This document shows, one piece after another, positions 1,145 to 10,964 of a stretch of 10,964 bases of DNA. Source of the DNA: a virus; the IMG/VR virus record IMGVR_UViG_3300002461_000870, positions 1 through 10,964 of that record. One strand, written 5' to 3'. Under the pieces are notes generated by a model. The model worked only from the letters and a program-made list of their open reading frames with translations. It did no database searches and was not told the origin of the DNA. How positions within the stretch are numbered: the stretch's first letter is position 1; each line of letters starts with the position of its first letter. The position numbers and the translations under genes were made by a program.

Positions 1145-1236
1145 ACTCCAGCGATTGGGTGCTGCTCGGCGTGGGCCTGTGGCTGGTGTGGGAACTGCGC
1201 CGGCAGACTCAACCCGCGCGCGCCATCAGGGTATAA
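1141..1236 (+). CDS. Tiny membrane peptide, 31 aa; last gene of the late operon
   Basis: ATGA overlap with the previous stop. Translation: MNSSDWVLLGVGLWLVWELRRQTQPARAIRV, with TAA at 1234-1236. It has a Trp-flanked TM helix followed by a basic tail. Confidence 0.5.
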   Translation: MNSSDWVLLGVGLWLVWELRRQTQPARAIRV

Positions 1237-1544
1237 GCGTCGCCAGCTCGGGCGCCCGATGCCCGCAGCAGCATGTAGGCGCGCAGCTCGCGCGCGTCGA
1301 TCGCGTTGCGCATGTCGGGCGGGCGCAATAGCCCGTCCACGTCGAACCACCAACCCCGCCAGGCGTCACCCGCGCGCGGCCCCACGTGCCCCCCGTGATA
1401 CATCTCGAGCAGTCGATGCACCGACAGAGGTGCTGGCCGATCGCCACGGCGCCAGCGCATCGCGGTTGTGCGATCGACGCCGGCCAGGTCGGCCAGCTGG
1501 GGCGTCGTCACCCAATCGAGCAGGAGTAGCGTGCCAGTGCGCAT
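1209..1544 (-). CDS. Putative HTH DNA-binding regulator, 111 aa; second gene of the leftward operon
   Basis: An internal ATG at 1544 avoids overlap with the upstream gene (8-nt gap). The HTH-like segment is TTPQLADLAGVDRTTAMRWRRG. The Trp/Arg-rich C-terminal half (AWRGWWFDVDGLLRPPD) recalls small phage regulators. The family name is not asserted. Confidence 0.65.
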   Translation of the reverse strand: MRTGTLLLLDWVTTPQLADLAGVDRTTAMRWRRGDRPAPLSVHRLLEMYHGGHVGPRAGDAWRGWWFDVDGLLRPPDMRNAIDARELRAYMLLRASGARAGDAYTLMARAG

Positions 1545-1552
1545 AGCCGGCT

Positions 1553-1987
1553 TTACGGCCAGGCGCGGGCGATTTTGAGGGCGAAGTGAAGCGCGATCGC
1601 GATCGCCGGCCATTGCGCATAATGTGTAGCCTGTAGGTCAAAAAAACCCGCAACCGCGGGGCCGGGCAGCGTCCCGGCAAGGGCCACGATTCCCACGGCC
1701 AAACAAAGGCATGCGGCCTGCGCCATCCGGCGCGCAACGCGCTCCCAAACCCGTTTTTCATCTGTGCGTTTTGCACGCTCGGCGCTCATGCACGCCAGCA
1801 CATAGCCCGGATCGAGGCGCAATTCAGCGGCGACCCGCAGCGCGATTTCCGGGCTCATGGCCGTAGTGCCCGCTCGATAGTGGGATAGCGTCTGCTTCGT
1901 GATGCCGAGATGCTTTGCGATGCCGTAGTCCGACTCGATGCCGGTGCGATCTTTCAAAGCTCGTACGAGTGCCGCCGTGGTGTGCAT
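1553..1987 (-). CDS. XRE-family HTH transcriptional regulator with hydrophobic (membrane-anchoring) C-terminal region, 144 aa
   Basis: The ATG at 1987 is preceded by GGGAGA (plus-strand 1993-1998). The HTH is GIAKHLGITKQTLSHYRAGTTAMSPEIALRVAAEL. The C-terminus has two hydrophobic stretches (AACLCLAVGIVALAGTLPGPAVAGFF and WPAIAIALHFALKIA). The TTG at 2026 given in the ORF track lies upstream of the predicted -10 and is rejected. Confidence 0.8.
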   Translation of the reverse strand: MHTTAALVRALKDRTGIESDYGIAKHLGITKQTLSHYRAGTTAMSPEIALRVAAELRLDPGYVLACMSAERAKRTDEKRVWERVARRMAQAACLCLAVGIVALAGTLPGPAVAGFFDLQATHYAQWPAIAIALHFALKIARAWP

Positions 1988-2084: not shown

Positions 2085-2113
2085 GCACGTGCCGCGCCCG
2101 GTGTCGGTCCTCC

Positions 2114-2152
2114 GCCAAGGGTCCGCGCCGGCCGGCACCCAACCCCCTTGGC
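2114..2152 (+). promoter_or_regulatory. Leader stem-loop in the early-right 5' UTR
   Basis: GCCAAGGG (2114-2121) pairs with CCCTTGGC (2145-2152). The loop contains the palindrome GCCGGCCGGC (2127-2136). The stem ends 1 nt before the SD AAGGAAA (2154-2160). Confidence 0.3.
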
Positions 2153-2649: not shown

Positions 2650-2903
2650 TCGACGAACGCGCCCGCGCGCTCGCGGAAATCCTCCCCGCGTTGCAGCAGT
2701 ACATAGAGCTAGGGGAAGCGATCAACTCGGCTCTCAAATCCAACCAGCTGCCCGCATCCCTGCCGCAAGTCGCCGCCCGCAGCGTCCACACGGCGCTCGT
2801 GGCGCTCGCGGCGCAGGAAATCCTAGCCCGTGCCCCACAAACGGCCGACGGCGTCGCCAAGCGGCTTGCAGGGCTCACGGCGCCGGCCAGGGCGGCGGCA
2901 TGA
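2646..2903 (+). CDS. Hypothetical helical protein, 85 aa
   Basis: The TTG start overlaps the upstream TGA (TTGA). GC3 is high. It fills the operon without gaps. The non-ATG start lowers confidence. Confidence 0.55.
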   Translation: MIDERARALAEILPALQQYIELGEAINSALKSNQLPASLPQVAARSVHTALVALAAQEILARAPQTADGVAKRLAGLTAPARAAA

Positions 2904-3103
2904 TCGAGCGAGGCTACATTTTCCGTATTGACGGCCTTGAACTCGAGGGCTTCGAACGTCTGCTCGGAGTCGGGCTCAGTGAAACCTGCGGCGTTTGGCC
3001 AGCTGATGAGACGAGAGCGGCCGAAGAACTGCAAATTGCGATCGACGGGGCGGTGCGGATCGAGGTGCGTGTTTACCGTATCACGGGGCGGCCTCTCGAA
3101 TGA
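2900..3103 (+). CDS. Hypothetical protein, 67 aa
   Basis: There are ATGA overlaps at both ends (2900 and 3100). GC3 is high. This is the only part of track ORF 2543-3103 that looks coding. Confidence 0.65.
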   Translation: MIERGYIFRIDGLELEGFERLLGVGLSETCGVWPADETRAAEELQIAIDGAVRIEVRVYRITGRPLE

Positions 3104-4410
3104 TCGCCGCCCCCCGTTCGATCGAGGGGGCTGGACCCCTTCTAGGTATAATTGCGAAATCCATACACGCGGCCCGGCCGAAGCGGTCGAATTCTCAGCC
3201 GAAAGCGGCGGCCGGGGCGCAGCGTATGCGATTCGAACTCCAGCGCGCGGCGCAATCCCTGCTCTACGTTCGAGACGCGCCGCACGCGAACCAGCATCGG
3301 ACGTGCTGGTGCCACCGTCGGATCAAGGACCGCGACGAAACATTGACGGTTTACAGGTCGGTTGACGGCGGCCGATCGCGCATCCAGGGCATCGGGACAT
3401 GCGGCAACGTCTGGACGTGCCCGGTGTGCTCGTCGAAGGTGTGCGAGGTTCGCCGCGATGAACTGGCGACGGCCATGATCGTGGCGCAGTCGCTCGGGCA
3501 CCATGCGTACCTGCTCACGCTCACGTCGCCGCATCGAGCCGAAGATGCGCTCGATCCGCTGCTCGATCGCCAGAAAAAGGCGCTTCAATCGTTCCGCAAC
3601 TCTCGCGGCTTCAAGGCGATCGCCGCGCGCTATTCCCGGCTCGGCGCGATTCACGCCAGTGAATGCACATGGGGCATCAACGGATGGCATCCGCACGCGC
3701 ACGATCTTTGGCTAGCCGCGCCCGGCCTGGAAGGGGATTTTTCGACGCTGCGCCGGTTGAAAGGTTTATGGCTACGCGCGCAGCTGAAAGCGGGCCTATT
3801 GCGTTTGGATGGAACCCTCAAGCCGCTGCGCGATGCTTGGCGGCATGGGCTCGATCTGCGCGGCGGTCAATACGCGGCCGAGTACATCGCCAAATTCGGC
3901 CACGATTCCGCCTGGGGGCTCTCGTCAGAGGTCACACGACCGCACGCGAAGGTGGGGCTTAGGAGAGAGGCGGGCGATGGCCAGCATTTCACGCCGTTCG
4001 CTCTGCTCGAATGGGCGATGGGCGGCGACTCGACCGCGCGCGCCGCGTTCCAGGAATACGCGCGCGCCTACTCGGGGCGAAGGATGCTCGTCTGGTCGCG
4101 GGGCTTGAAAGCGGCGCTCGGGATCGCAGAAATCAACGATGAACTCGCGGCTGAACGCGAAATGGGCGAGGAAGTGAAAGTTGGGATCCTGCACGCGGAC
4201 GCATACGCGGTCGTGATGAAGGCGCGCGCGCTGGGCGAGTTCATGGAGTACGCATCGCAGTCTTGCATCGACCCGGATACCTCGCAGCGCGATCTGGACG
4301 ACTTTATCGATTACCTGCGCGCACGGCTGCGCGATCGGGCGCCCCCCGGTCGGCCGGATCTGGTTTCACCGAGGGGCGCTCTGTGGTCTTACCCGGGGAG
4401 CGTGCAGTGA
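3100..4410 (+). CDS. rep: Rolling-circle replication initiator, HUH endonuclease superfamily I (two-tyrosine, phiX174 A / P2 A / PM2 P12-like class), 436 aa
   Basis: Motif 1 is YLLTLT (LLTLT at 3511-3525). Motif 2 is WHPHAHDLWL, with HPHAH at 3688-3702. Motif 3 is YAAEYIAKF, with Tyr codons at 3871 and 3883. There is an N-terminal Cys cluster, TCGNVWTCPVC (3400-3429). The start is uncertain: the ATGA-coupled ATG at 3100 or the ATG at 3226. Confidence 0.9.
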   Translation: MIAAPRSIEGAGPLLGIIAKSIHAARPKRSNSQPKAAAGAQRMRFELQRAAQSLLYVRDAPHANQHRTCWCHRRIKDRDETLTVYRSVDGGRSRIQGIGTCGNVWTCPVCSSKVCEVRRDELATAMIVAQSLGHHAYLLTLTSPHRAEDALDPLLDRQKKALQSFRNSRGFKAIAARYSRLGAIHASECTWGINGWHPHAHDLWLAAPGLEGDFSTLRRLKGLWLRAQLKAGLLRLDGTLKPLRDAWRHGLDLRGGQYAAEYIAKFGHDSAWGLSSEVTRPHAKVGLRREAGDGQHFTPFALLEWAMGGDSTARAAFQEYARAYSGRRMLVWSRGLKAALGIAEINDELAAEREMGEEVKVGILHADAYAVVMKARALGEFMEYASQSCIDPDTSQRDLDDFIDYLRARLRDRAPPGRPDLVSPRGALWSYPGSVQ

Positions 4411-4564
4411 CAACGTTTCAACGCATCAATGCCTTAACTCCAAAAGCATCTCGACTGCTCGATAGCCCGTTCGTTACTGCTGAAATGCGCTCGACGGTGC
4501 ATGAGATAATTCTGATCTTGGCGGATCTGGACCAGCGAATCACCCAACTGGAAAGGGAACGCCA
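4411..4564 (+). promoter_or_regulatory. Low-GC intergenic control region; candidate late promoter with extended -10
   Basis: About 47 percent GC over 4411-4520 by hand count, against the mid-60s elsewhere. TGAGATAAT at 4502-4510 fits the extended -10 pattern TGnTATAAT, and no good -35 is present. The SD GGAAAGGGAA lies at 4550-4559. Confidence 0.45.
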
Positions 4565-4849
4565 ATGGCCACAGGTGACAAACTCGGGCGGCTAGTGTGC
4601 CCGTGCTGCTCGGGCGCGTGGGAAGCGACCGAGATGAAAGGCGGCGGCACGTCGTTCAAGTGCCCGAATGGGTTTGTCGGCTGGGCCAAGGGACCGCGCG
4701 CCAATGCCGGCATACTCGCCAAGCTCAAGCCGGCAGCGCCGGCCGCAAAGGTACCCGCTGCGCCAGCTGCTGCACCAGCTGCGAAACCCGCACCGACACC
4801 CGCCAAGCGCGGCGGCTTCATGGCCTTTCTCGCGGGGGATGACGAATGA
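4565..4849 (+). CDS. Cys-cluster protein with Lys/Ala/Pro-rich low-complexity tail, 94 aa
   Basis: ATG at 4565 with a strong SD. The Cys cluster is CPCC-x17-C. The tail is AKLKPAAPAAKVPAAPAAAPAAKPAPTPAKR (about 4718-4810). The C-terminus is GGFMAFLAGDDE. Confidence 0.75.
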   Translation: MATGDKLGRLVCPCCSGAWEATEMKGGGTSFKCPNGFVGWAKGPRANAGILAKLKPAAPAAKVPAAPAAAPAAKPAPTPAKRGGFMAFLAGDDE

Positions 4850-10962: not shown

Positions 10963-10964
10963 AG
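10871..10964. repeat. Terminal redundancy, copy 2 (identical to 1-94)
   Basis: Same comparison as copy 1. The window ends at the ATG/AAG of the next gene, exactly as at 89-94. Confidence 0.95.

Follow-up and report, generated by a model that had tools for sequence, protein, structure and literature searches.

Proteins of the HUH superfamily are recognised by a metal-binding HUH motif carried on a beta-strand and a catalytic tyrosine, in a Y-x-x-K/H context, on an alpha-helix (PMC5714925). Superfamily I has as its signature a motif 3 with two catalytic tyrosines that do not vary (PMC3091885), and in the class formed by PM2 P12, P2 A and phiX174 A both residues are invariant and catalytic (PMC3091885, PMC5714925). 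According to the genome records of phiX174, P2 and PM2, the nick sites of these phages are annotated inside the rep gene. The pUB110 family is said to have been placed within superfamily I as well, by Ilyina and Koonin in 1992. In plasmids of the pC194 family a catalytic triad of Tyr214, Glu142 and Glu210 is universal, and the role of Glu142 is metal coordination (PMC5703833). Divergent Rep_1-family Reps have also been published for the Vinavirales, whose prophages often swap their replication modules (Yutin et al. 2022, PMC9502842), and the protein described here is a further case.

The stretch of DNA under analysis (the window; 10,964 nucleotides) carries a rep gene at positions 3100..4410 on the plus strand that encodes a protein of 436 aa, which Pfam, PHROG and HH comparisons identify as a divergent Rep_1-family HUH rolling-circle initiator. 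Its ATG overlaps the stop codon of a small ORF upstream (ATGA), and M1 as the start is backed by the conservation of Rep residues 14-23 in the homologue alignment. A check of the ORF and its translation found the reading frame and all four motifs of the preliminary description exactly as described and in the order given there. The motifs are not a product of chance, because their key residues are invariant and the protein has 211 close homologues and 10,286 representative clusters of homologues at E<=1e-3. Our reading, to which we give a probability of about 85%, is that this Rep is a divergent Rep_1 (pC194/pUB110) HUH initiator of a complete circular tailless phage of the double jelly-roll (DJR) type, and that Y262 is the only nucleophile used across the family.

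Family assignment of the Rep

Rep_1 (PF01446) is the only Pfam family matched by the window Rep, at 25.9 bits and E=8e-6 over aa 104-205; this score lies below the gathering score of 33.2, and the match spans only the region from the Cys cluster to the HUH motif. Relatives of the protein score above the gathering score (P0070 42.8, P0110 36.9 and P0040 35.2 bits), and Rep_1 is matched at E<=0.01 by 39 of 39 family members, none of which matches Phage_GPA (PF05840). The latter profile gave no match to the window Rep even at E<=10, whereas the controls PM2 P12 and P2 A reach 413-415 bits. When the family profile is used in HH comparisons, pC194 RepA is matched with a probability of 96.4% (E=1.1e-9, 111 columns) and pUB110 RepU with 91.4%, as against 8.9% for PM2 P12; the family HMM orders the proteins similarly, with 38.6 bits for pC194 RepA, 34.5 for pUB110, 3.9 for PM2 P12, 0.7 for P2 A and -2.3 for phiX174 A. 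Homology to the last three, sought by BLASTP, family HMM, HH and Pfam, amounted to motif-level similarity only. The preliminary description had placed the protein in the class of phiX174 A, P2 A and PM2 P12; the profile searches that it proposed do recover a HUH family, so that this part stands, but the family is Rep_1 and not the Phage_GPA class, and the class assignment has to be given up. Beyond Pfam, the window Rep matches PHROG 11698 at 9.8e-60. This family, which comprises thousands of metagenomic clusters, is mostly unannotated, and annotators may wish to name its members Rep_1-like RCR initiators.

The AF2 model of the Rep (pLDDT 82.5, pTM 0.80) places H199-A-H201 on a predicted strand (195-206) and Y262-x-x-K265 on a predicted helix (257-265), which is the hallmark arrangement of HUH proteins. 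When the PDB was searched by sequence, neither the single protein nor the family profile returned anything relevant, and a Foldseek search of the model against the PDB gave no match at E<=1e-3; the weak best matches are HUH proteins, namely MVM NS1 (3wrn, E=0.043), ISDra2 TnpA (2xm3) and AAV Rep (5byg). The matches of the protein in the viral library are RCR Reps. The identification as an HUH rolling-circle initiator is borne out, with all catalytic motifs intact, and since these motifs are intact, it is also sound to infer that the replicon replicates by rolling circle, as had been proposed.

Conserved residues and the variable position 258

The N-terminal part of the protein contains a putative Cys4 metal site. 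Three of its cysteines form the cluster C101-x5-C107-P-x-C110 (CGNVWTCPVC, aa 101-110; 3400..3429, plus strand), a putative zinc-binding module that is invariant across three samples of homologues; the fourth, C71 (3310..3312, plus strand), is identified by family conservation (120/120, 158/162 and 132/134 in the three samples) and matches Cys37, the equivalent upstream cysteine of pC194. The cluster aligns with CKNRFCPVC of pC194 and CKSRLCPMC of pUB110, an N-terminal C-x4/5-C-P-x-C being common to all, and Pfam finds a weak match between the Cys cluster of pC194 RepA and Zn_Tnp_IS91. The cluster, which the preliminary description had noted upstream of the other motifs, is by alignment a Rep_1 trait; PM2 P12, P2 A and phiX174 A lack it. 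Motif 1, LLTLTSPH (T140, T142, P144, H145; 3511..3531, plus strand), in which LLTLT occupies aa 138-142 and nt 3511-3525, aligns with FIFLTLTTPN of pC194 and lies on a predicted beta-strand (135-142, AF2); T142 and H145 are invariant among homologues. The alignment also identifies E188 (3661..3663, plus strand) as the equivalent of pC194 Glu142, with a putative role in metal coordination, and this residue is invariant in 162/162 loci and 146/146 representatives. All three histidines of motif 2, H197-P-H199-A-H201 (HPHAH, aa 197-201; 3688..3702, plus strand), located on the strand 195-206, are invariant in the three samples. The HUH proper is assigned to H199-A-H201, because PHFHV of pC194, aligned at this site, puts HFH on H199 and H201; on this alignment H197 is an extra invariant histidine.

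Motif 3, Y258-AAE-Y262-IAK265-F (YAAEYIAKF, aa 258-266; 3871..3897, plus strand), lies on the helix 257-265 and has its two tyrosines spaced three residues apart. These two residues differ sharply in their conservation. Y262 is invariant in 161/161 loci and in 146/146 independent representatives, making it the sole conserved tyrosine of the Rep family, and K265 is essentially invariant (160/161). Position 258 is Tyr in 52 of the 161 loci (32%) and in 35 of the 146 representatives (24%), and is otherwise K, S, F, D, Q, R or another residue. Fitch parsimony on the Rep tree requires at least 49 changes at position 258 (at least 16 when Tyr is set against non-Tyr) and 0 at Y262; Phe takes the place of Tyr in close relatives whose motifs are otherwise identical. 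In the inovirus loci with a Zot context the position is never Tyr (19/19), being occupied by Ser, Lys, Asn and similar residues. A comparison of motif registers equates Y258 with Glu210 of pC194 and Y343 of phiX174, the equivalence with pC194 resting on the register of motif 3, where the alignment is discontinuous. Glu occupies this position rarely (2/161 loci, 9/146 representatives), so that the triad of the pC194 family is represented by invariant equivalents of Tyr214 (Y262) and Glu142 (E188) and a variable equivalent of Glu210. The preliminary description had read the two tyrosines as a catalytic pair and had named poor conservation of the Tyr motifs among homologues as the observation that would speak against it; this is what is observed for Y258. 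A Y-x3-Y in one sequence is insufficient to define a two-tyrosine initiator; it is conservation that decides, and here it corrects a plausible misclassification based on motifs.

Two further regions deserve mention. The loop after motif 3 carries an invariant pair, E277...K284 (3928..3951, plus strand), with E277 present in 161/161 loci and 146/146 representatives and K284 in 145/146; the loop is predicted with low confidence (residues 269-290, pLDDT <50) and may serve in substrate binding or in the chemistry of termination. The C-terminal helical domain (aa ~295-412; 3983..4335, plus strand), with predicted helices at 299-412 (AF2), has the conserved consensus FTPFxLL...GKRMLxWSxGLK and a weak match to the C-terminal KRLISYGGLLK of pUB110.

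We infer a course of the reaction from the motifs and how they are conserved, from the family to which the protein belongs and from its genomic setting. The N-terminal Cys4 module (C71, C101, C107, C110) would probably bind zinc and aid DNA positioning, while a divalent metal would be held by H199 and H201, together with the extra invariant H197, and by E188. Y262, presented on the helix in Y-x-x-K, would attack the nick site on the plus strand and become covalently linked to the 5' phosphate, leaving a free 3'-OH that could serve as the primer for rolling-circle synthesis by the host polymerase. Because position 258 is evolutionarily free, termination in the Rep family would not depend on Y258, and would more likely proceed via a second subunit or an activated water. 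Y262, E188, H199 and H201 are singled out as residues for mutation.

Element context and candidate origins

A 94-nt terminal repeat closes the genome into a complete circle of 10,870 bp, which is circular and syntenic across several samples. Its major capsid protein (MCP) is a divergent DJR type of 327 aa, whose model (pLDDT 86) matches PRD1 P3 at 8.6e-18 and PM2 P2 at 5.4e-14 in structure comparisons; structure prediction was needed to find the gene, because searches by sequence with Pfam (including P2_N/P2_C), PHROGs, NCBIfam, tblastn and BLASTP against a PM2-type MCP gave no capsid gene. The packaging ATPase matches phrog_2666 at 5.9e-28 and PM2 P9 at 86 bits, and a P9-like ATPase is found in 50 Rep-bearing loci. 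The element thus presents the Vinavirales-like combination of a 9-12 kb circle, a double jelly-roll MCP and a packaging ATPase of the FtsK/HerA type. Within the early operon, rep is found where PM2-like genomes also have it; ORF, PHROG and Pfam/NCBIfam searches detected no other replication gene in the 10.87-kb circle, and the same profile searches detected no integrase in the window. A dif-like site (1612-1639), a candidate for integration that depends on XerCD, and an XafT-like gene are present in the element. The Rep belongs to a very large clade, which occurs both in filamentous phages and in the tailless phages and prophages of Betaproteobacteria.

The origin had been suggested to lie inside or next to rep, as in the phages of the phiX174 A class; the background to this is correct, PM2 P12, P2 A and phiX174 A having Y-x3-Y and nick sites inside rep. 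The most nucleotide-conserved stretch of the window genome does lie within rep, over the codons of motif 3 (3819..3948, plus strand); it contains two runs that are perfect three ways, one of 23 nt (3838-3860) and one of 20 nt (3898-3917). Synonymous identity in this stretch is 23/41 against 90/241 elsewhere, a weak, post-hoc difference (p=0.019) among three genomes, and peaks of similar height occur at aa 13-41 and aa 94-113 of rep; the stretch is a weak candidate for a cis-element. A candidate for an origin or a leader structure is found upstream, at 2095..2152 (plus strand), downstream of a promoter-like site (2056-2084). It consists of an invariant block, CGCCCGGTGTCGGT (2095-2108), followed by a candidate hairpin with a stem formed by GCCAAGGG (2114-2121) and CCCTTGGC (2145-2152) and a 23-nt loop that begins with TCCGCGCCGGCCGG. 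Within 2095..2152 there are runs identical three ways, and perfect stems of 8-10 bp are kept by compensatory changes in the window and in three related loci (L007, L008 and L090); the DNA fold z-score of the hairpin, -1.17, is not significant. The conserved blocks of the leader hairpin occur in the window's own syntenic clade only, and so cannot be attributed to Rep rather than to a regulator.

The double-strand origin of pC194 and pUB110 carries a nick sequence of the CTTGATA type, a core of the pC194/phiX kind. The window contains no exact copy of CTTGATA, and its 13 copies with one mismatch, against 11 expected, are at chance level; across 99 loci of element size the rep strand shows no excess of the sequence (34 on the plus strand, 46 on the minus strand). 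The k-mers common to 163 Rep-bearing loci are only GC-rich low-complexity words and codons of the Rep motifs. The 154-nt gap after rep (4411-4564) was considered as an intergenic origin and set aside, as it may instead hold a small ORF; the candidate ORF starts from GTG 4407, overlaps the rep stop codon and is found by tblastn in L090 only.

Alternative readings and comparison with known systems

The strongest case against our reading is that of a two-tyrosine initiator of the phiX174 A, P2 A and PM2 P12 class, in which Y258 and Y262 would flip-flop in processive nicking and rejoining from an origin inside rep. The Y-x3-Y is exactly in register with phiX174 Y343/Y347, P2 Y450/Y454 and PM2 Y410/Y414, both tyrosines would lie on one face of the predicted helix, the element is PM2-like, and the strongest nucleotide conservation of the genome falls inside rep; set against this are the silence of Phage_GPA on the window Rep and 39 relatives at ~414 bits for the controls, the loss of Tyr at position 258 in most of the family and in every Zot-context locus, the lack of a Cys cluster in the phiX174, P2 and PM2 proteins, and the weak, post-hoc nature of the synonymous constraint in rep, and we hold this reading to be improbable. 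A role of Y258 specific to the window's lineage is conceivable, because two neighbouring subclades keep the Tyr, the window's own (window, L007, L008) and that of Burkholderia/Undibacterium. The window's lineage might even have converged on a functional two-tyrosine centre like that of phiX174, built on a scaffold of the pC194 (Rep_1) type, once the residue four positions before the catalytic Tyr had been freed, which strikes us as unlikely; if true, the family would form a natural series of related initiators with different termination chemistries (second Tyr, hydrolysis, second subunit) that could be compared directly through single-residue swaps.

Other readings question the function of the protein rather than its active site. 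Rep_1 proteins can serve as relaxases (PMC5714925), the zinc domain of IS91 transposases bears a weak resemblance to the Cys cluster of pC194 RepA, and the window lacks an integrase, all of which would suit a relaxase-like or IS91/Helitron-like strand-transfer enzyme for mobilisation or integration instead of a vegetative initiator. We consider this very improbable: the circle has no other replication gene, rep occupies its early-operon position, the relatives are annotated inovirus Reps, IS91-type enzymes use two tyrosines where one is conserved here, and the dif-like site together with the XafT-like gene gives a better account of integration. That the gene is a decaying, inactive remnant in a defective element, as the sub-threshold Pfam score might hint, is hardly credible in view of the intact ORF, the full set of catalytic residues, the complete and circular genome and the strong purifying conservation.

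As a divergent Rep_1 initiator, the window Rep shares with pC194 RepA and pUB110 RepU the upstream Cys, FLTLT, the metal-binding Glu (Glu142 = E188), the HUH and the Y-x-x-K (Tyr214 = Y262). It differs from them in being ~200 aa longer, with an insertion of ~50 aa between HUH and motif 3, in its extra invariant H197 and conserved E277/K284 loop, and in having a freely variable position, Tyr in the window, in place of the termination residue Glu210 of pC194; it also belongs to a proteobacterial phage without a CTTGATA-type nick site, not to a Firmicute plasmid. With PM2 P12, P2 A and phiX174 A, likewise HUH initiators, it shares the order of the three motifs and the motif-3 register Y-x3-Y-x2-K, and with PM2 the tailless DJR virion type, whereas these proteins are devoid of the Cys cluster and of detectable family-level homology to it.

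The nearest phage Reps are inoviral. Full-length homologues are encoded by the filamentous phages Pseudomonas phage PMBT54 (ORF1), Propionibacterium phage B5 (ORF9, Bifilivirus) and blackswan219-6, with 31% identity over 87% for PMBT54 and 231 bits against the family HMM, and they carry the same invariant residues; these phages are ssDNA inoviruses with Zot-type morphogenesis, and their Reps fall on separate branches of the Rep tree. The published Vinavirales prophages resemble the window in having an HUH Rep_1 gene after short variable ORFs in a PM2-like tailless (pro)phage of 9-12 kb (PMC9502842), a likeness of arrangement; the examples are alphaproteobacterial (Paremcibacter). Tailless DJR phages and filamentous phages thus share a Rep_1 lineage, a further case of the exchange of replication modules in the Vinavirales.

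The replication initiator and its family

The rep gene (3100-4410, plus strand) encodes a 436-aa protein that carries, in this order, the Cys cluster CGNVWTCPVC (aa 101-110), LLTLT (aa 138-142), HPHAH (aa 197-201) and YAAEYIAKF (aa 258-266), and on the ORF and all its motifs the preliminary description was borne out by the sequence. The annotated start is supported by the conservation of residues 14-23 in homologues; it is overlapped (ATGA) by the stop of a small upstream ORF (2900-3103, plus strand). This ORF is conserved only in L090, the closest relative in the genome collections, while at that place the related loci L007 and L008 carry other small ORFs, a pattern that fits the variable short ORFs reported upstream of rep in Vinavirales.

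The same description assigned Rep to the two-tyrosine class of phiX174 A, P2 A and PM2 P12; its identification as an HUH rolling-circle initiator holds, but the class does not. The single Pfam match of Rep is Rep_1 (PF01446, the pC194/pUB110 family), at a sub-threshold 25.9 bits over aa 104-205 (cutoff 33.2 bits; positive controls pC194 RepA and pUB110 RepU, 199 and 293 bits). Phage_GPA (PF05840), which recovers PM2 P12 and P2 A with 413-415 bits, does not match Rep even at E<=10. Among 39 diverse Rep relatives, all matched Rep_1 and none Phage_GPA. On a family HMM built from 120 Rep homologues, pC194 RepA reaches 38.6 bits and pUB110 34.5 bits, as against 3.9 for PM2 P12, 0.7 for P2 A and -2.3 bits for phiX174 A, and HH comparison gives probabilities of 96.4% for pC194 (over 111 columns, Cys cluster through HUH), 91.4% for pUB110 and 8.9% for PM2 P12. 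Both pC194 (CKNRFCPVC) and pUB110 (CKSRLCPMC) have the Cys cluster too, whereas PM2 P12, P2 A and phiX174 A lack it. Judging from these scores and the Cys cluster, Rep can be classified as a divergent Rep_1-type HUH initiator outside the phiX174 A / P2 A / PM2 P12 class. It matches the unannotated PHROGs family phrog_11698 strongly and has no match in NCBIfam or among PDB sequences. With 10,286 representative clusters in the family (E<=1e-3), Rep is a further member of a known and abundant kind of initiator.

The AlphaFold2 model of Rep (pLDDT 82.5, pTM 0.80, from 39 sequences) puts motif 1 and HUH on neighbouring strands and motif 3 within a helix (257-265), in agreement with the HUH-bearing strand and the helix-borne catalytic Tyr expected of HUH enzymes (PMC5714925). 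Foldseek returned no significant solved relative; its best matches, all weak, are the HUH nucleases MVM NS1, ISDra2 and IS200 TnpA, and AAV Rep, and the named matches in a viral structure library are rolling-circle initiators. E188 is invariant and aligns with the pC194 metal ligand Glu142. A low-confidence loop directly after motif 3 (E277...K284; 3928-3951) contains an invariant Glu and Lys for which no pC194 counterpart was noted.

The tyrosines of motif 3

The motif-3 register aligns across all comparators: Y343-VAK-Y347 in phiX174 A, Y450-IAK-Y454 in P2 A, Y410-IAK-Y414 in PM2 P12, E210-MAK-Y214 in pC194 RepA, E237-TAK-Y241 in pUB110 RepU and Y258-AAE-Y262 in Rep. Y262 is therefore the counterpart of the nucleophile, and by motif register Y258 is the counterpart of the termination residue in both model systems. 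In phiX174 that residue is a second Tyr (PMC5714925); in pC194 it is Glu210, acting as a general base (PMC5703833).

Whether Rep works with one tyrosine or, as the preliminary description had it, with a catalytic pair is decided by the conservation of the two positions. Y262 is present in 120/120 close homologues, in 161/161 loci from viral and genome collections and in 146/146 representatives less than 50% identical to each other. Position 258 is Tyr in 46 of the 120 and 35 of the 146, and across the 161 loci it reads Y52 K26 S22 F16 D9 Q9 R5 G4 H4 T4 N4 A2 W2 E2. On a neighbour-joining tree it changes at least 49 times, including at least 16 changes between Tyr and non-Tyr; Y262, H197, H199, H201, C101, C107, C110, T142 and H145 do not change at all. 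Conservation of the paired tyrosines thus fails for Y258, while Y262 and the His motif are kept. Two nearly identical motifs, RGGQYAAEYIAKF and RGGQFAAEYIAKF, differ solely by Y/F at position 258, which points to a role in packing rather than to an essential hydroxyl. The family has no further conserved tyrosine, the runner-up being Y320 (53%, with Phe as the alternative). On residue conservation, the Rep family is a single-tyrosine HUH lineage. Y258 is kept throughout the window's own subclade, so that a lineage-specific role is conceivable there, albeit improbable.

Candidate origins of replication

The origin was not located in the window. The window has no exact copy of a CTTGATA-type core, this core shows no enrichment on the rep strand across Rep-bearing loci, and k-mer sharing across these loci was uninformative. 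No intergenic space is free on the 5' side of rep; downstream lies a 154-nt gap, which might encode the candidate coding sequence 4407-4595 (plus strand), an ORF overlapping the rep stop (GTGA). Two candidates are left. The stretch 3819-3948 (plus strand), inside rep, is the most nucleotide-conserved of the genome, with the longest three-way identical runs (23 nt, 3838-3860; 20 nt, 3898-3917) on either side of the motif-3 codons; synonymous conservation is modestly raised (23/41 vs 90/241), a weak constraint. The other candidate, the early-operon leader hairpin (2114-2152), belongs to the most conserved noncoding block (2095-2152, plus strand), which has a promoter-like site (2056-2084) on its 5' side and the first early gene (SD AAGGA, ATG 2163) on its 3' side. 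Here an invariant CGCCCGGTGTCGGT precedes a hairpin (stems 2114-2121 / 2145-2152). Compensatory changes maintain its 8-10 bp stem across four genomes, and its loop is invariant over the 5' half. The block could be an origin, but equally an operator or an RNA leader/5'-UTR structure. L090 carries the invariant leader block GCCCGGTGTCGGT in two copies (5763-5775 and 7880-7892), the second of them without the hairpin; the block may be a repeated protein-binding site.

Virion genes, relatives and known systems

A 94-nt perfect direct repeat at both ends (1-94 and 10871-10964) shows the window to be a whole genome, a circle of 10,870 bp. The packaging ATPase gene (5322-5945) matches phrog_2666 and PM2 P9. 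A terminator-like hairpin with a T-run (5971-5985, plus strand) lies 3' of it, in the gap before the major capsid protein (MCP) gene, the counterpart of the late-promoter region in PM2. The MCP gene (6151-7134, plus strand, GTG start) escaped detection by Pfam, PHROGs, NCBIfam and tblastn; its highly conserved family, found on contigs of 9-11 kb, comprises at least 478 members, only two of them matching Pfam P2_N. The predicted fold is a double jelly-roll (DJR; pLDDT 86) matching PRD1 P3 (8.6e-18), the STIV MCP and PM2 P2 (5.4e-14); of the three, PM2 P2 is structurally the most distant from it.

Both L007 and L008 are complete as circles (30-nt overlaps) and syntenic with the window, at ~70% nucleotide identity. 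A P9-like ATPase occurs in 50/163 Rep-bearing loci; these 50 come mainly from Betaproteobacteria, many of them chromosomally integrated, and eight carry the window-type MCP and most others the PM2 type. Lower-scoring Reps lie on 5.5-8 kb contigs, 19 with a Zot ATPase, which marks these contigs as inoviruses. One Rep family is found with two kinds of virion that are unrelated to each other, those of filamentous phages encoding Zot (L002, L023-L089) and those of tailless phages whose DJR capsid has an MCP of one type or the other (L007-L022, L090-L140), their Reps occupying separate parts of the Rep tree. L090 (CAYYVB010000096.1), whose Rep is 80% identical, falls in the bin of an Opitutaceae MAG, as opposed to Betaproteobacteria for nearly all other relatives, which leaves the host of the window's clade in doubt; the contig may be mis-binned.

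The window contains no integrase. A dif-like site (1612-1639, plus strand; ATTGCGCATAA-TGTGTA-GCCTGTAGGTC), good in its XerC arm and degenerate in its XerD arm, adjoins an ORF (1209-1613, minus strand) that weakly matches the Xer-activation factors of the VC1465/XafT family (27.9 bits, cutoff 70). In L009, dif-like repeats 11,366 bp apart (8840-8889 and 20206-20255) flank a related Undibacterium prophage. Together these features suggest XerCD-dependent integration at dif, similar to that of TLCphi. Rep_1 Reps in Vinavirales prophages and the frequent exchange of replication modules have already been published (PMC9502842; PMC1950889), and the closest Reps among annotated phages are those of PMBT54 and B5, both filamentous.
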